Assembly (NCBI GenBank): GCA_002256025.1
Contig: NKIB01013073.1
Location: 1-64,000, forward strand
DNA: 64,000 bases
Origin: Asterionella formosa
Lineage: Eukaryota
Reading direction: 5' to 3'
Of this stretch, positions 6,039 to 51,159 are shown in pieces. Position numbers and translations under genes: made by a program. How positions within the stretch are numbered: the stretch's first letter is position 1; each line of letters starts with the position of its first letter. The notes beneath the pieces are model-generated. The model searched no databases and had not been told where the DNA came from. It saw nothing but the letters and a program-made list of their open reading frames with translations.

Positions 6039-7511
6039 TCAAAACGACCATATTCTCTCTGGAGACATGTTATTCACGGTTTCTTCTTCTCTGTTCACTT
6101 CGTCGTCGCTCCCAGCAACATACTCTTTTAACTTGTAATTTCGTTGCGGATGTCGTAATTTATTGAGTGCTCTGGCTTCCACCAAACGGACTCGGTCCCG
6201 TGAGATTCCAAGCCTTTTGGCTGTCTCCTCCACACTTTTGGAGGTTCCGTCATCAAGGCCAAATCTGGCGATGAGTACATCACGCTCCGGAGCTGCGAGC
6301 TCATTGACAACCGCTCGAATGTCTTGCCGTAGTGACTGAATTTCGGCGTTCTCTTGTGGTGTCGGTGAGTCAGAAGAAATGAAATCACCCAAAGTTCTGG
6401 TATCACCTCCCTTGAATCCGTTTCCCTTCCCTACTGGAACCTCCAGGGAAAGGACGGATCTTGACGAGTCAGTATACATGAGCAACTTGTCAACGCTAAT
6501 TTCCAAAGTGTGAGCGAGTTCCGGAGCTGACGGAGTTCGTCCAATCTGTTGCTCCATGTCTTTCTTGACCCTGTTGATTTTTCGAAGCATGGCATGTACT
6601 AAGATTTGCAACCCAAAGCGATTGTAAGAAACATGCTTGAGAATGAAAAACTATCCATGAGGAAAGGTTGCAATGCACTTACCATGCGCCGGCAACCGAA
6701 TCACGCGAGAGTAGTCGGAAATGGATCGCAAGATACGCTGTCTGACCCACCAAGTTGCATAGGTGCTGAACCGGAAGCCTCGCTCTGGCTCAAAGCGCTC
6801 TGCCGCTTCCATAAGACCTAAATTTCCTTCTTGGATCAAATCTTGAAAGGTTAAAATAGTCCCGACTCCACCACTCGCTCCTCGCAGGGCGTGATGATAC
6901 TTTTTCGCAATAGAGTTAACCAAGCCTCCGTTGGCATTTACCAACTGAATTCTTGCTTCGGTCCCTTCGTACATGGTGCGTCTCAATTGAATGACAGTCA
7001 AACCACATGCGGCGGCCCACTCAGATTCTAGTGGTTGCCAGGACGAATTATGACCTCTGGCTGCCACCATATCATCGCGAATCCGGACGGCCGCTCTCAT
7101 GGTTCGTAAGGATCTCGTCAAGTAACCTTCTTCCTGTTTCGTTAAAAGGTCGGGAAAATTGGTGGACGTTCGTGAAAAGGTCGTTGTGGCTTCCACCTTG
7201 GGACTGCTATGCAGTGAGCGGGGCCGTGTCAGCTTTAGGCGCTTGCGTTCGGGAGAAATCGCAGATACCAATGGAGTCACTGGTACTCGTCGACGGTCTG
7301 GCTCCAAAATGGCTTTGGCTGAGTACGCGTCGATGGGAACGGCAGAGTAGCAAAGTGCGCTTGCGTGGAGGTGAGTGTCCATGAGGGAACAATGCAACGG
7401 GTTTCGAACCATTGCGATTGTGCTCGTTGAAAAGGCGTTCACTGGCTCCCGTTCCAGGGTTGCTGAAATGAGGAGAGTGAGGAGAAGGATGGAATTGCGT
7501 GAGCACGTCAT
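6039..7511 (-). CDS. Nuclear-encoded, plastid-targeted RNA polymerase sigma-70 factor; exons 7511-6683 and 6598-6039, intron 6682-6599
   Basis: Region 2 motifs [35 protein letters not shown]; region 4 [30 protein letters not shown]...TCTTAG intron joins RLPAH to VHAML in frame. N-terminus [17 protein letters not shown]...VNAF is a signal peptide plus ASAF-like cleavage motif (start 7511 preferred to 7736). Confidence 0.93.
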
Positions 7512-7669
7512 TCTGGGTGTTTGCGATGAACAGAACAAGGAATGGTCCACAGACATGTCGAGTGGACGAGGAGGAAGAAACTCTGGAAAATGAACCAGAA
7601 TAAAAACAGAAATGCATACGACAGCCAATAACAGTACCTGGTACCGTGTACTCCGTGCAGCCAAATACG

Positions 7670-7775
7670 TGACGTTGGGATGGGATGACGTTTTTCCAAC
7701 TTTGCACTCCCTGTCGGACCCAGACGCATCGGACAAAATCGCCGATATCGGGAGTGATAGGAAGGTATGACGTCA
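7670..7775. promoter_or_regulatory. Cluster of TGACGT (bZIP/aureochrome-type) boxes upstream of the sigma factor
   Basis: TGACGT at 7670-7675 and 7686-7691, and palindromic TGACGTCA at 7768-7775, 160-265 bp upstream of ATG 7511. Function is inferred. Confidence 0.4.
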
Positions 7776-36443: not shown

Positions 36444-37104
36444 GGATTACATGGTAATCAGGTATCTGGACCTGGTACTGGTACCTGGTACCAGCAAGTG
36501 CGTGGCGGCAATTTTGTTTCTTCGTGTACCGGTACAACGTAGGTAGGTACCTGGTACTCACTCCCAAAACAACCGACAAACATTTCCGGACTCGGCAGCC
36601 GTTACGGAATCAATGTATGAAACTTCTAACGGCTCGCGCCCGCAGGCCGTATAATGACGACTGGACAAAATTTGATAAATTCAGATAATCATAAATGGAC
36701 AAAACAGGTTCTGACGAATTGTAATTTTGGGTTAAAGTTTTTGGGGATTATACCGGTAGTTTAAGCAAATGGACCACTTTCAGCAAATCTACTTGAACCA
36801 AAACCACTTCAAGCAAAACGAACAACAACGGGTACCGGTACCTGGTAGTCCAGAATCCTGATGATCGGTCGTACCGACAGTAATTTTCAAACCAAATCCC
36901 AACGACTGCCAAGAATGCATCAGGGACCACAATGCCCGTATCTACCCTACCTGTACCTGGTACCATGTACCAGGTACCGTAGTCTACCACGCATACCGGT
37001 ACCTGACATGCCTGTTCCTGCGAACGAGAATTGAAAGCAGACGAGACGAACCTGATAACAGAACAGAAGAACAAAGAAACATACAACAACAGCCGACGAC
37101 CATC

Positions 37105-39999
37105 ATGTCAAGAAGGCACTCTCCGCTCCCCTTCGCCTCGCCAGTCCCTTCTTTGTCGTCACTTCCACATGATGACGAGGAATCCCCGGCTTGGCTGGAT
37201 GAGCCGCTCTTTCACGAGAACGGAAGCGTTCCTCCTGTCGACAGTTCCTTTTGGGAAGCCATATGGTCGTCGTCGTCGTCTCCGCCACGACTCAAGCCGG
37301 TGCAGCTACGCTTGGCTCCCAATGAGTCCAGACTAGCGAGAATATGGAGCCAAGCCATGGACTATAGCAAAGTGACGCTCTTGGTGGCGGCCATTTGCCT
37401 CTTGTGGCCCCTGGGGGTGTGGAGTTTCAGGGAATTCACGCACAGCACGGACAGTACGTTTCACCCCATTCCGGGATCCCTTTCGGCACAGGCACAAGCA
37501 GCATTTACCAAAGCATATCCGAATGATTGGTCAGATCCCATGCACCCCGTTTTGGTGCTGGTCTTGGAGTCGACGAAGAACGAATCCCTGTTGGATTCAA
37601 CGAATGACAGCTACAATCGCACCAGGGTGTTTTGTCAGGGACTCCAGCTTGCCATCAACTCGACTTGCTGGAAAACGGCATTTGATAGTGATTGTGCAAC
37701 GGAGGATTGGATCAAGGTCACTACCTATTTCGACCTTCATGATGTACAACTAGAATATTTAGCGCAAAGCCTGACGGCCTCGAGGGGGAGAACCGCACTG
37801 ATCGAGGTTCAATACTTGTTGTCAGCTAACGCTACGCACCACCGAGAGCGCGTCAATCAAATTATGAATGTGCTGAAAAATTACGGAGACGCGAACGCGG
37901 ATGATGCGTTCTTCAATGTTTCCTACACAGGTCTTCAATGGTTTCAATCGGACTTGATGAAGGAGACTCAATCAGACTTGGCCAAGATGGATGCCATTGT
38001 CCTTCCACTTGCCTTGATCCTTGTGGGAGTGGTCCTGCCCAGAGCGCATCCGGCATTTGTATGGATCATACCATTGATCACCATGATTACTACTGTATGC
38101 GCGTGGTCGAGCATTTTGCGCATCATTGCCAAGACTATGCAAATCACGCAATTCACGCCAAGTATCATGATGAGTTTGACGTTAGGCATGGGTATTGACT
38201 ATACCCTTTTTCTTCTTTCAAGATATTTAGAAATTAAGAATGACAAGTCGATGGCTATTCGACACATGATTCAGCACGGGGGTCAAGTCGTTTTGATGTC
38301 TGGCTTGACTCTCATGTGCACGTTCTTGGGACTTGTGTTTTTGCCCTTGCAAATGCTCAAGTCGGTGGGGATTGGAGCTGCTGTTTCAATTGGTTGTGCC
38401 TTGGTCGTCAACTTGACCCTCGTTCCTGTACTGCTACATACAAAGTTGGGAGACTGGATCATTTTACAAAGGGGAAATGTTGAACAGCAAACGGTTGTCA
38501 GTACCCCTGACCTGGTGCCACCATCATCGATCTGGTATCGTCTCTCAACTCATTTGTTACACCCATACAAGTCAGTGATTATTATTCTTGTTATTGTTCA
38601 GCTACTCTTGCCAGTTGCTCGCTATGCTGGCGATATTAAAACGTCAATAAGTTTTGATCTCTTGTTGCCTTCAAAAGCGCCTTCGTTGCGTACTTTCCAC
38701 TCTTTGAGTCGTAAAGTAGGCGCGGGTCGCATGGCACCCTTTCGGATTCTATTTGATGGAACCGATGCCAACATTAACATTACTTCCGACCTTGGTTTTG
38801 ATATAATGCACCGAGTCATCGATGAATTCATTGCGATTGATTCGCTCAGCACAAATGGAATTACTCATATTGCTACTGGATTTGATGAAGTTCAACCCAT
38901 GGTGGATGATTTGATGGACACCTTGGGCATTTCAGTACGCGCGAAAGAAAAATTAAAGGAACAAGAGGAAAAGGGTATCATTTGCTTGGACGATGTACCG
39001 GCAGACACTCAGTATGCTGGTATCGCTGTATTGAAGAATAAAGCAATACCGCATTCGCTATACATTTCAGCCAAGTATTGCGCGAAGATCAAACCATATT
39101 GCCCAATCGAAGCGTTACATCTTTTGGAGTATGTAGATTCCATGGCAACCTCTCAAGACGAAGTCGCTACCTTTGTCAATGCGATTTTGAGCGTTGATCC
39201 GTTTTCTGACCAAGGAGTTGCATGGTTGAAGAATGCAAGAGCTACACTAGATCGATTGGAACGCGGGGGAGCTCTTGGTGGTGTCAAGGTATTCATTCAA
39301 GGTAGCGCTGCTGTTGCCAACGATGCAGTTGACTCAGTCTTGCATACCTTCCCTTTCGTTATTTGTGTCACAATGGGAGTGGTCTTTGTCTTGATGGGCT
39401 GCTACTTTCAGTCGTTCGTGGCTCCGCTGCGAAGCATTGTGAGTATTAGTTTGACTCTAGCCTTTGTGTTTGGCCTAGTTGTGTTGGTCTACGAACATGG
39501 CATTTTAAACTGGACCGGCGTTTCTTCGTGGTCGTCCGCCAGTGCTGAAATATCGTGGTTGGTTCCAGTCATGGCCTTTAGCATAATTGTGGGACTGGCA
39601 CTGGACTACGATGTTTTTCTTGTCAGTCGAATTCTGGAATTCCGAACCGAAGAAGGTTATGACCACAAATCGTCCATTGTGGCTGGTCTCCATGCGACTG
39701 GAGGAATAATTACGGCGGCTGGCCTAATCATGGCGGTTGCATTCGGTGGCCTCATGCTCAGCTCGTCCCCTGTATTATATCAGTGGTCCTTTATGATTAC
39801 AACTGCTGTCCTTCTGGATACGTTTGTCATTAGAACCATGGTGGTTCCCATTATAACTTTATGGACTGGGAATTACTCATGGTGGCCTCAGTCCATACCC
39901 GAGAGTAGGATTCATGTGAATGGCTTTGAAGATGAGCAGCGACTTCCATTGGATGGAGTCGACTCAGCACCGCTTTTGGTTGGGCCACAAACTCCTTAA
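37105..39999 (+). CDS. MMPL-family (RND superfamily) membrane transporter (964 aa)
   Basis: Two repeats, each a large soluble loop plus TM bundle, with signatures LGMGIDYTLFLLSRY and GLALDYDVFLVSRILE; TGGIITAAGLIMAVAFGGL; LLDTFVIRT.VVP. Intronless. Confidence 0.92.
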   Translation: MSRRHSPLPFASPVPSLSSLPHDDEESPAWLDEPLFHENGSVPPVDSSFWEAIWSSSSSPPRLKPVQLRLAPNESRLARIWSQAMDYSKVTLLVAAICLLWPLGVWSFREFTHSTDSTFHPIPGSLSAQAQAAFTKAYPNDWSDPMHPVLVLVLESTKNESLLDSTNDSYNRTRVFCQGLQLAINSTCWKTAFDSDCATEDWIKVTTYFDLHDVQLEYLAQSLTASRGRTALIEVQYLLSANATHHRERVNQIMNVLKNYGDANADDAFFNVSYTGLQWFQSDLMKETQSDLAKMDAIVLPLALILVGVVLPRAHPAFVWIIPLITMITTVCAWSSILRIIAKTMQITQFTPSIMMSLTLGMGIDYTLFLLSRYLEIKNDKSMAIRHMIQHGGQVVLMSGLTLMCTFLGLVFLPLQMLKSVGIGAAVSIGCALVVNLTLVPVLLHTKLGDWIILQRGNVEQQTVVSTPDLVPPSSIWYRLSTHLLHPYKSVIIILVIVQLLLPVARYAGDIKTSISFDLLLPSKAPSLRTFHSLSRKVGAGRMAPFRILFDGTDANINITSDLGFDIMHRVIDEFIAIDSLSTNGITHIATGFDEVQPMVDDLMDTLGISVRAKEKLKEQEEKGIICLDDVPADTQYAGIAVLKNKAIPHSLYISAKYCAKIKPYCPIEALHLLEYVDSMATSQDEVATFVNAILSVDPFSDQGVAWLKNARATLDRLERGGALGGVKVFIQGSAAVANDAVDSVLHTFPFVICVTMGVVFVLMGCYFQSFVAPLRSIVSISLTLAFVFGLVVLVYEHGILNWTGVSSWSSASAEISWLVPVMAFSIIVGLALDYDVFLVSRILEFRTEEGYDHKSSIVAGLHATGGIITAAGLIMAVAFGGLMLSSSPVLYQWSFMITTAVLLDTFVIRTMVVPIITLWTGNYSWWPQSIPESRIHVNGFEDEQRLPLDGVDSAPLLVGPQTP

Positions 40000-43002: not shown

Positions 43003-43715
43003 GTTAATATCTATGCTACTGAGCTGAGGGTGCTATACGTCTAAGTCTACGGAATGGAATTCAATGAGTGTCGGCAAATGAAACTAAGTGAATTGGAGGT
43101 TATGTGACAAGCTATTTTTGTCAATGTATATCCTGCTTTTGCACCTCCAAACCCACATTGCTTTTTGGTGCTGTTCGAAAGTACATCACCCCCATGTATG
43201 CCGTACGCAACATTACATCAAAAAATAATAGCCTAGCAAGCGAACGCACAGGCACGGAAATCATTTGTAACCATATACTGCACCATGTTCCAGGTATCCG
43301 GCATGTTATATGATTACGAGGAGTAGGCAACACAACCAGGTACCAGTACCACCAGCATCGTCTATACCAGGTACCAGGTGCATGTAATTCCGTGTAGAAA
43401 CGTGATGACCGATAAAAAATAGTCAAGGAGTTGATAGCTAGGTAGTCTGGTATATAACGTATAAGATGGGCCTAAATGTATGGCCACTTGGAACTGGAAG
43501 GAGTACCGGAAGTACCCCAGACACTTCACCAAGGGCAGGTACCCTGGTACCAGGTACCAGGTACGCACCAATGGAACAGTCAACGTCAATGGGCCGAGGT
43601 CGAAAAGAGAGCAGGAGCTTCCTCAAGTCCTGTTTCATTTTCACTTAAAAAAATACAGAATAAAGATGCTGTCTTGCTCCTAAGCACTATGAGGAATATG
43701 TCATTGGAAGATTTT

Positions 43716-44004
43716 TGTTGGAGAAATATTTTAGGAAAGAAAATCCCGGTATAAATTACCTACTACATATTGAGGAATCGAATGAATCAAAAAGAATACC
43801 GGTATGGTACCAGAGAAAACTCAGAATTCGAAAACAATCTAGCTACATCAACAGTAGTAAAACCCATAATTCTACTAAAACTTTTAGGAACGATTACAAT
43901 CGATTACTGCAACATCGTTGTTCATATCTTCAGCCTATTTGGTCCCTGACGTGTCCTTACAGGATACAAGAAAGCATAGAGTGCTTCGGGACACAATTTC
44001 AACA
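43716..44004 (+). repeat. 5' LTR (289 bp)
   Basis: TGTTGGAGAAAT...AATTTCAACA. Differs from the 3' LTR by 7 substitutions and 4 short indels (manual alignment). Confidence 0.96.
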
Positions 44005-44019
44005 GTTTTAGTAGAATTA
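44004..44019 (+). other. Primer-binding-site position, complementary to the element's own LTR
   Basis: AGTTTTAGTAGAATTA is the exact reverse complement of TAATTCTACTAAAACT (43867-43882 and 48198-48213). No TGG start as expected for a tRNA 3'-CCA primer. Confidence 0.75.
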
Positions 44020-47000
44020 GCCGGCCAGAGAGCAGAGCCGTGCATCACAATCAACAACAGGTGGACCGTTGAGAGTCCGGAGACAAGATCTGAGGGTACC
44101 AGACCGTCCAGGGTCTGAAGAAGTCACACAAGGCGCATCATGAGTGGCAAAGGAAAGTTCACCAAGAAGGCTCAGACCAAGGGCAAGTTTCAAGCCAAGG
44201 GAGGGAGCATTGCTTCTCACACAATCAAGAAGTCAGTCAATAACTACAACTACTACCTCGGGTCAGCAAAGCAGGCATCTGATTATGAGACTACTACTGA
44301 GTACCTCATCAATCACATCAAGAAAGTGTTCGACTATGGCAGCGACATAGGAACTGCGCTCAAGTTGTTAGAACCAATCAACACATCCGCATGGAAGCCA
44401 AGAATGCAAGTGAGCATTGCAACAACAACAAGATCGCGCTGCAGAGAATCGACAATATGAGATTGAGTTCAAGGCTGACTATGACATCTACAGTAAAAGG
44501 GTACGCACAGGCCTACGAAAATAATAATTCCAAGGCATATGCGTTGCTCTGGGAAAGATGCAACAAAGCCATGAAGAACAAGATCGAAGCGAGATCCAAT
44601 TACAATAGGATCGAAAATAATCCAATAACATTGCTTATGGCAATTAAAGAACACGCATTAAATTTTCAAGAAAATCGATATTCAATGTCGATTATTTTAG
44701 ATGCGATGAGAACTTTTTTGCTTACAAAGCAAAAGGAAGGAGAAAGTCTACAAGACTACACCAAGAGATTTCGTGTGGCATGAGATGTGCTCAAGTCACA
44801 CATGGGAGGACCAATTATCCTCACCAAGTTTGTTGAAGCCATGGACAAATACAACGAGACTGACATCAAGCAAGCTACGAGATAAATTTCGCAAACAAGC
44901 TTTCAGTCAATTTATGGCCTATTTATATCTCGATAATGCCGATAAACCAAATACGGATCAATTATGACCGGGCTGAACACTCAACAATCACTCGGCAACT
45001 ATCAATACCCAAAGAGCATCATCGAGTCGAATAATGTTCTCAGCAAGAACCATCGGTTTGACGTAACAAGAAATAAATCCAAAAGTCACAAGAAACCAGG
45101 AGATCATAATGAAGAGAGAGAACAAAAGGATGCAGGGAAGGAAGACGAAGATGTGAACTTGTCGTTTGCACAGTTAGAAGGAAAATGTTACTGCTGCGGA
45201 AAAGCAGGTCAAAAATCTCCTTCGTGCAGAGACAAGAATAAACCCGAAGATGAATGGGCTATAAACAGGGCCCAAAGCCATGCACAGGCACAGGCTAAGA
45301 ATACATCGGACACAAGTACAGTTACCTCTGTTAATTCCAACAACCCGCCGTCATCACAAGCTTCACAACAAGCAAATGTTAATCAATTTGGATGGGCGGG
45401 AGCTCATATGAAACTTCAATTATACCAAGCATCTGAGATGCATGACTGGATACTATTGGATAATCAATCAAGTGTCACAGTCTTTTGCAATCCAAAAATG
45501 GTTGATAACATTCGAATGTCAACCAATGGAAGCATGCACCTGGCCACAAATGGTGAATCCATGGTCGTCACTAAGATTATGAAGGCTGATCTTCCACAAT
45601 GGGGAAAAGAATGGTTTAATGAGAAGGCAATCACAAACATCTTCAGTTATGCCGAAATGGCAGATAGTACTAGGTACAGAATTACCTACAACTCTGAAAA
45701 AGAAGATGCATTTATTGTTCATTTGCCTGACAAGCCAGTTCGATTCAAAAGAATTGGGATGAACTTAACTTTTTTCAAGCCTCCTACAGCAATTAAAGTG
45801 GAGAATGCTCAAATCTTTAATTCAGTTGAAGAAAGCAAAACATTTTACACTGAGCGTCAATTTAAAAAAGCGAAGTGAGCTCGTGATCTATTTCATGCCT
45901 TGGGTACACCATCAATTAATGATTTCAAGGCAATAATTCGTATGAATACGATCAACAATAATCCAGTTGTGACCACAGATGATATCAAAATTGCAGAGAA
46001 AACTTTTGGACCTGACATCGGAACACTAAAAGGCAAGACAACTCGTCTCAAGCCGCTGCCAGTCGTGAACGACTACATCGAGATTCCTAAGGAGCTTATC
46101 AGAGCTCAACGCAAAGTGACTCTTTGCATGCTGGATGGAATGAAAGTGAATGGACAATCATTTATCACAACAATTTCTCGAAACATTATGTATAGGACAG
46201 CGCAATGGGTCAAGAATCAGACAGCTGAAGTCTATCGAGATGCTTTGACTCAGGTAGCTATTCCGTGTTTATAATACCGGAGGATTTAAAATTTCAGCAA
46301 TTCACTGTGACAACGAGTTTCGATCTTTGATGGAACAAATTTCCAATGAATTTCAAGTCACTATGAACTAAGCAAACCCACAAGAATGTGTTCCTGAAGC
46401 GGAGCGAAATAATCAAGTGATTAAAGAACGCGTGCGCGAAGCTTATCATCGATTACCTTTCAAACATTTGCCACGACTGATGATTAAGATTCTAGTGACA
46501 GAATCTGCAAAGAAACTGAATTTCTTTCCGGAAAAGAACGGGATATCCCCGTATTACAGTCCTCGTATGATTTTACATCAACGAAACCTGGACTATGCTC
46601 GACATTGCCAGTATACATTTGGCACTTATGTCCAAGCACATGAAGAACCTGTGTTTTCAAGCACTAATGCACCACGCAGCCTAGATTGCATTCATCTACG
46701 CTACAATGACAACGTGCAAGGAGGTCATGAGCGAATTATTAAACCTACCTACAAATTCATTGATCACTAGACAAACAGTTACTCCTCTACCACTTACCCC
46801 TGCAATCATGAATCAAGTACATGCCCTTGCTGTGCAGGAAAATATGCCAGATGGTCTCAAGATATCAAATCTAACGGGACAACTTTTTCATGATAGTGCT
46901 TGGATTGCAGGAGTGGATTATGATAATGAAGCATTTGAAGATGCACAAGATGAAGATTATGAAGATCAACAAGTTAGTGAGGACTATGAAAGCAATGATG

Positions 47001-48053
47001 AAATTCTCGGAGAAGATTATGATGAAATGACTCCGGATGAAATATATGAAGCAGAACAGCTCGAATTAAACAACAATATCCAAGAGGATGACCCTGAACC
47101 TGAGGGCAACAATGAAAATAATGTTGAAACGAATGCAGCAGATGAAATCCAAGATGAGGATGAAGAACCAGTAAATAAAAATGAAAATGAAGAGGCAATG
47201 TTAAAAGTCAATCAAAGCACTGAGGATGACACAGACCCAAATGTTAGAACTACAAGGTCTGGAAGAGCCTCAAGACCACCATCAAAACTAACTATGATCC
47301 AACATCATTTGCATACCCAAGCACACTGTCAAGAAGAATACACGACTGATAATGCGAAAGTGATCGCAAAGACAATGTTTTAAATGAATGAGATGTGTAT
47401 CGATAAAGAAGCATTTCACTTTGTTCAGTCATACAGCTTAAGGAAAGTCCAAAGGAAATTTGGCCAGAAAGGAAGAGACGCAAAATTAGTCAAGATCATG
47501 AATTTCTTGAAAGCAGCTCAGAATGAGGTTGCATCTATGAGTGCTGATGACACTCAGAGCATTAAATGGTACGTTGATGTGGCGTTTGCAGTACACAAAG
47601 TTTTTAAAAGTCACACTGGACCTACATTGTCACTTGGAAACGGAACTATTTGTTCTATGTCTACGAAACAGAAAGTGAACACTAGAAGTTCGACTGAAGC
47701 AGAATTGGTTCGTGTCGATGACATTATATCAAAGGTGTTATGGACGAAATAATTTATTGAAGCACAAGCAAGGACATAAGGTGACTACTAGTAATGTCAT
47801 TTACCGTTACAACACTAGCGCAATGAAGCTAGAAGCAAATGGAAAAGCAAGTTCAGGAAAACGCACGCGACATTTCAACATCAAATATTTTTACATTATT
47901 GTTCTTATTGAAAGAAAGGAAGTACAAATTAAGTACTGTTCAACGGATGCCATGCTAGCAGACTACATGACAAATCACTGGTTGGAACGAAATTTATTCA
48001 TTTTCGTCAGCAAATTATGAATTGAAAGTAGCCATCCGTGTCCAGCAGGAGTG

Positions 48054-48335
48054 TGTTGGAGAAATTATTTTAGGAAAGAAAATCCGGTATCAATTACCTA
48101 CTACATATTGAGGAATCGAATGAATCAAAAAGAATACCGGTATGGTACCAGAGAAAACTCAGAATTCGAAAACAATCTACATCAACAGTAAAACCCATAA
48201 TTCTACTAAAACTCTTAGGAACGATTACAATCGATTACTTCAACATCGTTGTTCATATCTACAGCCTATTTGGTCCTTAACGTGTCCTTACAGGATACAA
48301 GAAAGCATAGAGTGCTTCGGGACGCAATTTCAACA
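48054..48335 (+). repeat. 3' LTR (282 bp)
   Basis: TGTTGGAGAAAT...AATTTCAACA; direct repeat of 43716-44004. Confidence 0.96.
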
Positions 48336-51159
48336 ATTTGTTATGCTTCTTGATGCCACTACACCCTTTGCTTTGCAATATGTCTAAGCAGAAACCTATT
48401 CCCAAGATTCCTTAATGACTCAAGAACTTTGGCAAACGGAGTTCCCCAATGAGTCATTCTTTGCTGAAAATGGTGAGGTTGGAGAAATTCCTGATCCTAG
48501 ATGTGAGCGATCAGTTTCTCTAATGGCAGGTTTTGATTTGTCAGGATCCTCCAAGCGCCAAGCAGGCTTTCTTTGGCAATTCTCGACATCTTCATTCGAA
48601 GATATTGAGTTTTTGGAGCAGGGAGTCATAAACTACTGGAAATTTCTCCTCTTGAAGCCAAGAGCATAGAAACAGGGGAAAGTTTAGTACCAACATACTA
48701 GTACATTACTTGATGGAAACAGCATTCCATTTTTCTGTCTTGCCTTTGTCACTCTTCATCCTCACCCATTCCATTCTTACTTTCCTCTTTGCTTATTGTA
48801 GTCAAATCGATACGATGTTGCACACACACATGCTCTCGTCAATTGCTGGCTACGACTCCGACTGCAAGACCATCATGGGTTCAACATTGCACCACATCGA
48901 TTTCTTGGTTGACCGCACCAAAGGTAGCATTTTGGATCTCTAGTATCAATCAACCAAGCAAATGTGGCTTGATGAGTTTGGTTCTGAGTATGTGGTGGAC
49001 GGTGGCATGTATCGAGGCGAACCTCCATCCTCCTATTACAGTGCAGAGTGGCAGCCTACAGGAGCTCCTACAATGGTTGTGGCCAGTGAAATGGGAGCTT
49101 CCTCAACATCATCAAACAGAATTTTGCTACCTTTCAAATGGGCAACTATCTCTGATAATACCTCAGATGGATCTCCTGCCTTCATTGCTCCAACTGACAA
49201 ATCAGAACGCCGTGAAAATCTATGAGGTGAACAATACCGTGAGTATTATGTCCTTGGCAACAAGGTTAACAACATAGTTGGCTAGCTACTATTAGCTACC
49301 TTGAGACGAACGAAGCCCATCAGATAATTTTTTCAAGACTTCTGTTCAGGATCCAATATTAGTTGCATTGATTCCCTGTTACCACTAGTGTCTTAACTGC
49401 TGTTCGCATATGAAGGATTACGTAACAAATAAACCATCTGTCTACAAGCAGATCGGCGTTCTCGAAAAAATGCGTTTTAATGAGTTAAATAGAGATGCAC
49501 AATTGCTCTGTTTTTGTATTTAAATCTAAATTAATTAATTAAAACCAGTTTAACATTAGTTTATTATATTCCATACATGTACATATCGCCAAATGTTGTT
49601 ATACATTGGCCAGCCACTCAACTATTTGTGGGAAACCAATAAAAAGAGTATTTTTCATTTGGTAAACTTTCTACGACGGTTGTTGCACCTAGCTAAATGG
49701 ACCATACTGCCAGATATTTAACAGTTACAATCCTCAAAACGAGCATACCATTGTTTTCTTCCTTCCCATCATTGCCACTTTTGGGGTTGCGCATTCCATA
49801 ATTGAATGCAAGTTGCCGTTGTTCTACTTTTATATCGTACTTTGTACGTATGTTGAGAATAGATGCATCGAAGAAAAATGGGTCCTCAGCATGCATCTGC
49901 ATTTTGCTTGAGATAGTTGTAGCCATGAGTGAAAAACGAAAAAGTCGAAAAACATTTTTTCAAATGTAGTTGCCAAGTCTTTCTATATATATTATATACA
50001 TGGATCCGTAGCTTAGAGCTATTCGCACAATAGGGCAATTGAGCTGGAGAAAATCGTAGGAGTCAAAATGGCCCCAGATAAATTTGAAAAATCGATGCAA
50101 GTAATATTGGACAGAGGGAGTACAGTTTTTACCCAGAACCCTAGCAGTAGTCTACCCATATACTGCGTGCACTCTGATAAGAAAAAATATTACATTATGT
50201 GTATTACAACACAATCATTGTACCCATAAACCAAAAATTTGTGCTCACATGCAACCTTTTTTGTGAATCAAATGTTTGAAGAAAAGAATCCTAATAATTC
50301 TTGTGTTTTTTAGCTAAGTACATATCATTTCATCCTGCCAAAATGAGGGGTCCATTGCTGTCATTTTGATTTTCAACTTCTTTGTCTCTCAGATAATAGC
50401 TGATGTTTGGAATGCTGCCAAGATTTACTGGGAGATGAAAATGTTGAACAATTGCAGCAATTTTATAATTTCAGAGATTCATCACTCATATGTCTGTGTG
50501 TAGAAAACCTTCATAGACTTTGCCTGTGGTGGTTGTGGTAGTGGTTGTGGATTTGGATTTGGATGTGGTGTGACCAATGGTGCTGACTGATCATATCTTG
50601 CCATGCATTTCACTTTACTGTCAGCACCATAAATGTGAGTTGTTTCATTTTTTTATTAGGACAGGCTGCATGGGTTGCTTAATTCATTTGATCGGTTTTT
50701 CAAACATACTGGTTTATCAATTTTTTTACATAAAATAAATCTAGATTGCGCCTTCCAAAATGCCACAAGATGCACTTGATCGTGACTTTTTATGAAGCAG
50801 CAAGGTACACTCTATGTTACAAAAATGAATTTGTATGATGAATAGAAGTACTGGTAGAATTTTTCACGGACGGCGCATGACCTTTTTTCATAGTATTGCC
50901 CCGGCCACCCAATTTCGCGAAAATGTGCCTACTATGTATGAAAATTACCGTAGTTATTCCGAGTACCTGGTGCCGGTACTATAATGCAACAAACATTATA
51001 CCGGTATATAGACTAAACTAGAGTCTTTGGTCCCAGCATGCTTCTTGCAAGTGCACTTCACTCCCCGCTCCATTGACCACCACCAAACGGCAAGAACATT
51101 TTCATTCCTAGCCTATAGTAACGTCTGAACATATCGACATTACCCTATCCAAAGCAACC

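Follow-up and report, generated by a model that had tools for sequence, protein, structure and literature searches.

Co-variation between the primer-binding site and the LTR points to self-primed reverse transcription in a copia retrotransposon lineage of diatoms

Introduction

[quoted passage not shown] The question is raised by a single element in a stretch of 64,000 nucleotides from Asterionella formosa, hereafter the window. An earlier note on this DNA had described a copia retrotransposon in which the position of the tRNA-type PBS is occupied by the reverse complement of a segment from the middle of the LTR. It proposed that the 5' end of the element RNA folds back onto this site and serves as its own primer, by a route that would have arisen independently of the one used by the fission-yeast element Tf1.

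The experimental demonstration of self-priming in Tf1 is credited, reportedly, to Levin and colleagues, and we know of no elements other than those of the Tf1-type gypsy group for which self-priming has been shown experimentally. Tf1 and Tf2 of Schizosaccharomyces pombe, and the Tf1/sushi group, are described as having self-primed reverse transcription without a tRNA (PMC5341516, PMC4600332). In Tf1, bases 1-11 of the RNA anneal to the PBS, and RNase H cleavage takes place between bases 11 and 12 (PMC7175516). The earlier note contrasted this with copia elements, said to use normally whole or half tRNAs. [quoted passage not shown] Here, we analyse the element of the window and its relatives, and weigh the explanations for its unusual PBS.

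Results

A dead copia-type element in diatom DNA

The element spans 4620 bp (43716-48335), has LTR termini of the form TGTTG...CAACA, and is the only copy of its kind in the window (Table 1). In several frames, the internal region encodes gag, which has a CCHC-like knuckle, followed by protease, integrase and RNase H. We mapped it on the closest intact relative, a polyprotein of 1624 aa (P0002). The match to P0002 changes reading frame at least three times and is interrupted by several in-frame stops, and around 338 residues of the RT core (P0002 residues 1102-1439) are absent. Hence, the earlier note was right about the copia type, but the internal deletion, the frame changes and the stops show that the copy is not intact: it is an old, dead, RT-deleted copia-type fossil in diatom nuclear DNA. 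The polypurine-tract-like sequence next to the 3' LTR has counterparts in four relatives (L027, L031, L036 and L044), where CAGGAGTG is followed by TGTTGG.

Table 1. Positions of the features of the element, counted from the first nucleotide of the window.
Feature	Position	Strand	Basis or remark
Target-site duplication, left copy ATTTT	43711..43715	+	matches 4/5 bases of the right copy ATTTG
5' LTR, 289 nt, TGTTGG...TCAACA, terminal inverted repeat TGTTG/CAACA	43716..44004	+	direct repeat with 48054-48335, 94% identical
C-A dinucleotide, putative initiator; A at 43866 is the putative transcription start	43865..43866	+	directly 5' of the arm; C-A at the edge in 34/34 distinct arms
LTR-internal arm TAATTCTACTAAAACT, proposed self-primer	43867..43882	+	perfect reverse complement of 44004-44019; equivalent arms, with other sequences, in relatives
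TTTAGG, conserved motif at the proposed cleavage site	43883..43888	+	directly 3' of the arm; CTTAGG in the 3' LTR (48214-48219) and in close relatives
Putative PBS AGTTTTAGTAGAATTA, complementary to own LTR	44004..44019	+	pairs perfectly with 43867-43882 over 16 nt; begins with the last LTR base
Decayed gag-protease-integrase-(RT deleted)-RNase H coding region	44140..48020	+	P0002 residues 1-1101 and 1440-1622, frames 3, 2, 3, 1
Internal-deletion junction, RT core lost	47468..47482	+	residues 852-1101 matched up to 47482, residues 1440-1622 from 47468 on
Polypurine-tract-like CAGCAGGAGTG	48043..48053	+	directly 5' of the 3' LTR
3' LTR	48054..48335	+	direct repeat of the 5' LTR, 94% identical
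3' LTR copy of the self-primer arm, unchanged	48198..48213	+	same sequence as 43867-43882
Target-site duplication, right copy ATTTG	48336..48340	+	4/5 match to ATTTT at 43711-43715

Pfam searches with eight ORF pieces of the coding region (44119-48020; gag, protease, integrase and RNase H) matched no relevant family at E-values up to 0.1. They were therefore uninformative, and the classification was taken from homologues. A search with the integrase piece retrieved 94 proteins, including full-length, intact polyproteins of 1600-1650 aa with the domain PF07727 (RVT_2), which is the sole Pfam family recorded in the intact relatives. The nearest clusters to the lineage in the Protein Atlas are also RVT_2. 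The current Pfam models do not reach the gag, protease and integrase of this lineage, which have diverged too far. The order gag-PR-IN-RT-RH in the window, with the RT core deleted, and RVT_2 in the full-length relatives are those of Ty1/copia elements (Pseudoviridae). We found neither the gypsy order (PR-RT-RH-IN) nor a gypsy-type RT, as the integrase precedes RT and RNase H and the relatives carry PF07727.

The surroundings of the element are gene-dense eukaryotic DNA. The neighbouring UTP7 gene has seven relatives with an organism name, six of them from diatoms, and the five homologues of the element that carry an organism name are all from Fragilaria crotonensis. The host sequence includes an open frame of 1044 aa on the forward strand (36865-39999) with a domain of the MMPL family (RND-type transporter, E = 1.9e-64), and another on the reverse strand (6651-7772) with a sigma-70 region 2. 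Short direct and inverted repeats resembling TACCAGGTACCAGG occupy positions 43281-43562, just upstream of the insertion. There are no tRNA genes in the 64-kb window.

The PBS is the reverse complement of a segment of its own LTR

The perfect 16-nt complementarity between PBS and mid-LTR was found exactly as the earlier note had it, with the same arm unchanged in the 3' LTR (Table 1). Its other observations on the site were equally accurate: the match sits on the LTR boundary, the first paired base being the terminal A of the LTR, the LTR arm is preceded by CCCA (43863-43866), and no TGG is present downstream of the 5' LTR. In 20 dinucleotide shuffles of the LTR-leader interval of the window, the longest perfect inverted repeat was 10 nt, versus the 16 nt observed. 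A search of Rfam with positions 43600-44200 gave no family at E-values up to 1. A motif similar to the hexamer that directly follows the LTR arm is conserved in the closer relatives: CTTAGG, CTTAGA or CTAAGA was found at this place in 18 of the 40 rows listed. It may indicate where the RNA is cleaved, or where the region used in strand transfer begins.

The pairing is found throughout the lineage

We used an alignment of 24 polyproteins to search metagenomes. This gave 394 pattern matches, of which 271 were confirmed; the best 80 were kept and correspond to 73 loci, with polyprotein identities down to about 40%. ARAGORN detected no tRNA in these 73 loci. The N-terminus of gag could be placed, with at least 150 nt upstream, in 44 loci, which provided 46 intervals, or 47 with that of the window. 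The other 29 loci had no usable 5' region of gag and are outside the count.

In 42 of the 47 intervals upstream of gag, the bases immediately downstream of the LTR end and a segment within the LTR form a perfect inverted repeat of 13-19 nt. Among the 46 intervals free of N, 38 had a longest perfect inverted repeat in this range of lengths. None of the 920 dinucleotide shuffles of these 46 intervals reached 13 nt, their maximum being 12. The four additional cases are L004, which has a 16-nt pair and was outside the shuffle count because it contains N, L027 and L044, in which the contig end cuts the 5' LTR and the partner arm was found in the 3' LTR, and L047, also positive for the pairing. No pairing was found in the remaining five intervals. 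For two of them, L001 and L010, the contigs do not include the relevant part of the LTR; the PBS of L001 is identical to that of L002 and L032. In the other three (L037, L059 and L061) there was no pair in the available sequence, and the contigs may be incomplete.

Most contigs end inside the 3' LTR, and the BLAST check of boundaries by two LTRs worked for few loci. The LTR ends were verified by two LTR copies or by flanks in the window and in L044. Many contigs run from the end of pol through one LTR to the start of gag (L002, L004, L006, L007, L014, L032, L060 and around 20 other loci), and L060 has two full units in tandem that share single LTRs, with 622 nt at 100% identity. These layouts could correspond to tandem arrays, to one-LTR circles, or to the collapse of the LTR in the assembly.

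The two arms change together

The relatives show 34 distinct arm sequences; over their last 13 nt, the first 33 of these differ by a median of eight positions. The closest relatives of the window copy, L002 and L032, which are of a type with an intact ORF of 1624 aa, differ from it at a single pair, where G to A in the PBS is compensated by C to T in the LTR, and one compensated change also separates L006 from L007. We aligned 14 elements independently with MAFFT and folded the alignment with RNAalifold. The only structure recovered was the stem between PBS and LTR, with 15 pairs, 13 of which had changes on both sides. In this alignment 99.0% of the cells were paired, versus 67.2% in shuffles, with no value as high among 500, and 34-47% with slid partners. 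The co-variation of PBS and LTR arm in relatives had been set beforehand as the test of the earlier note's reading, and the result is strongly positive.

G-U pairs were almost absent from the stem (1 in 210 cells of the 14-element alignment), as would be expected of two arms of which one is copied from the other. Taken with the usual pairing of the LTR-terminal A, described below, it agrees better with templated copying than with selection acting solely on an RNA stem. The PBS of the lineage lacks the hallmarks of a tRNA-type site, i.e., a TGG start, or the conservation expected of a complement to a tRNA 3' end or internal tRNA segment: none of the right arms listed among the relatives begins with TGG, and the site varies from one relative to the next.

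The edges of the pairing coincide with the LTR end and a C-A dinucleotide

Wherever the pairing is present, its 3' arm begins at the conserved ...CAAC(A) end of the LTR. Among 33 arms, 25 have the LTR-terminal A as their first paired base, seven start directly after it and one starts one base later. The 5' arm lies in the LTR, 62-224 nt upstream of the 3' arm in all relatives.

At the outer edge, the pairing meets a C-A dinucleotide in all 34 distinct arms. In 21 of them the A is located just outside the arm; in 12 the pairing begins with it, and in one, that of the L029 group, it falls three bases within the arm. The surrounding consensus is T-C-A-(C/T)-T, with C at -1 and A at +1 in 34/34 arms and T at -2 in 25/34, which we take to be an initiator-like motif. 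This A lies 16 nt from the base opposite the LTR-terminal A in most arms (27 of 33); the distance is 17 nt in five, including the window, and 14 nt in one. Pairing that stops at a start-like motif is expected if only transcribed bases can join the primer or be copied from it. The earlier note had predicted a transcription start around 43866. The C-A at the edge of every distinct arm agrees with this prediction, from which we infer that the genomic RNA probably starts at the A of this dinucleotide, i.e., at 43866 in the window. The L029 group fits poorly with a start exactly at that A, as its pairing of 19 nt extends 3 nt beyond the C-A. The 19-nt pairing is found in L029, L031, L034, L035 and the first copy of L036; in the second copy of L036 a point change shortens it to 16 nt. 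None of the metagenome contigs begins at the arm.

RNA fold and RNA libraries

The predicted fold of positions 43866-44025 is closed by the stem between the PBS and the LTR arm. It has an energy of -43.6 kcal/mol (z = -4.28), and none of 200 shuffles was as stable. Inner hairpins are present in the fold of this single sequence; in the consensus fold of the 14 elements we recovered the closing stem only, and no conserved inner stem-loop of the U5-IR type.

We also searched for the element family in sequencing runs, using Logan contigs, which show no starts or ends of molecules and in which uncovered parts are uninformative. Thirteen runs, 12 of them recorded as RNA, contained up to 17% of the sampled words. 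Contigs of the family occur in all four of these runs that we analysed, RNA libraries from different studies; intact polyproteins also exist, and the family is alive elsewhere. In these four runs, the summed word depth of the contigs in bin 43865-44019, whose limits agree by chance with the stretch from arm to PBS, was 3286, 10218, 48 and 8399. It was 424, 77, 1.6 and 192 in the U3 bin before it, and 951, 194, 3.2 and 60 in the bin after it. The R-U5 bin thus had 3.5-141 times the depth of its neighbours, although contigs are a poor measure of depth. We regard this excess as a weak hint of self-priming. It could reflect a short leader RNA, a strong-stop product, or the conservation of this region across subfamilies.

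Discussion

The complement shared by PBS and LTR, which co-varies across the whole lineage, supports the self-priming interpretation of the earlier note. We consider it likely that elements of this lineage prime minus-strand synthesis with their own RNA, in the manner of Tf1, using a primer of about 16 nt. The window copy is unable to replicate, and its site is therefore a fossil of the mechanism.

The cycle may be outlined as follows. The genomic RNA would start inside the LTR, at the A of the initiator-like C-A (43866). Its first 16-17 nt would then fold back over some 120 nt of R-U5 and pair with 44004-44019; complementarity and co-variation are observed for this step, and the fold is predicted. 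By analogy with Tf1, the RNase H of the element would cleave the RNA on the inner side of the duplex, after 43882, leaving a 3'-OH. The reverse transcriptase would extend this primer through U5-R, and the strong-stop DNA would be transferred to the 3' R. Finally, plus-strand strong-stop synthesis would copy the primer, so that the PBS would be templated anew from the LTR arm in each cycle. Such re-templating would explain why the pairing is perfectly of the Watson-Crick type and yet changes in step across the lineage.

A more ambitious picture is possible, and we put it forward tentatively. The lineage may be a widespread and old group of diatom copia elements in which self-priming evolved independently of Tf1/sushi and of the plant TAR elements. 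The primer would have a fixed length of 16 nt, counted from position +1 of the initiator, and its last U would pair with, and might template, the terminal A of the LTR, i.e., of the CA end that the integrase needs. The excess of R-U5 could then be the released leader RNA or the strong-stop product.

Three other explanations deserve consideration. The primer might be the same LTR arm acting in trans, supplied by the second genomic RNA of the particle or by a hypothetical short RNA derived from the LTR. The sequence evidence is alike for action in cis and in trans, and the excess of R-U5 in the four RNA libraries, a poor measure given that it comes from contig depth, would fit abundant short LTR RNAs. 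Yet, the predicted intramolecular fold is stable and is closed by precisely the stem of PBS and arm, and the arms are 62-224 nt apart throughout the relatives, as expected for fold-back. We thus regard priming in trans as unlikely.

Even less probable, in our view, is that the stem has a structural role in the leader, e.g., in packaging, dimerisation or the control of translation, and that the element uses another primer or starts reverse transcription without a base-paired one. Conserved leader stems are common, and the fungal copia element GalEa is described as having a conserved hairpin of unknown role in place of a PBS (PMC5445492). However, the 3' arm lies within one base of the LTR end in all 33 arms, which is by definition where the minus strand starts. 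A base-paired primer must vary with its site, and the only co-varying complement that we found is the LTR arm of the same element. Selection on RNA alone should moreover tolerate G-U pairs, of which the alignment has a single one. Priming by a host tRNA or half-tRNA, with the complement in the LTR as a coincidence, is effectively refuted: most copia lineages use tRNA-Met or half tRNAs, according to the sections of PMC6317226 on copia priming, but here there is no TGG at the PBS, shuffled intervals never gave pairs of 13 nt, and the 34 PBS sequences, different between lineages and each perfectly matched by its own LTR, exclude a conserved tRNA primer.

Self-priming from the LTR arm, our preferred reading, invites comparison with the known systems. 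As in Tf1, the PBS is directly 3' of the 5' LTR and is complementary to an LTR-internal segment that is taken as the 5' end of the RNA. The Tf1/sushi elements are Ty3/gypsy chromoviruses, whereas the diatom element has the copia order gag-PR-IN-RT-RH and RVT_2. The duplex has 11 nt in Tf1 and 13-19 nt in the diatom lineage, mostly 16 nt from the putative start, and in the latter it usually includes the LTR-terminal A. The inner U5-IR stem of Tf1 has no recovered counterpart in the consensus fold of 14 diatom elements. Lastly, the mechanism is experimental in Tf1, while we infer it in the diatom lineage. In its probable mode of priming the diatom element resembles Tf1, yet its domain order and RVT_2 place it outside Tf1/sushi.

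For the TAR elements, which are copia-type as well, a self primer set free from the transcript of the 5' LTR is predicted to bind the PBS (PMC6317226). Their hosts are land plants rather than diatoms, and the prediction, as described in the sections of that paper on TAR, comes without a primer length, a start-site motif or co-variation statistics that could be compared with ours. GalEa, a fungal copia element without a tRNA-type PBS, also carries a conserved self-complementary feature at the position of the PBS. This Conserved Hairpin Site of GalEa forms a palindrome or hairpin locally, with the last A of the LTR as part of it, and its authors state that they found no complementary U5 inverted-repeat sequence, as far as the passages on this site go (PMC5445492). 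The PBS of the diatom lineage, in contrast, is not palindromic and has its partner well upstream in the LTR.

Among diatom elements, the groups CoDi1-7 of Maumus et al. 2009 are likewise Ty1/copia LTR elements, with lengths of 5.2-8.1 kb and TG/CA LTR ends, and the parts of their description covered here do not discuss PBS or priming (PMC2806351). In a search of full texts, with most subscription journals outside its scope, we found no report of self-priming in diatom elements. The novelty would therefore lie in the addition of a diatom copia lineage to the self-primed retroelements, with a primer of 16 nt and a start motif, self-priming of copia elements being already known as a prediction.

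These results may have practical consequences. Detection of the PBS by tools such as LTRdigest relies on complementarity to tRNAs. Pipelines that filter by PBS could miss self-primed elements if their detection depends on such complementarity; a diatom genome paper, for example, describes the filtering of LTR candidates with LTRdigest by a recognisable PBS (PMC7466962, in the part on LTR candidates). The element-specific pair of primer and PBS could provide a simple handle for marked, orthogonal retrotransposition reporters in diatoms. More generally, if a second copia lineage, in diatoms, combines clean co-variation with a start-site motif and a primer of fixed length, tRNA-independent priming would have arisen, or persisted, more widely than is usually assumed.
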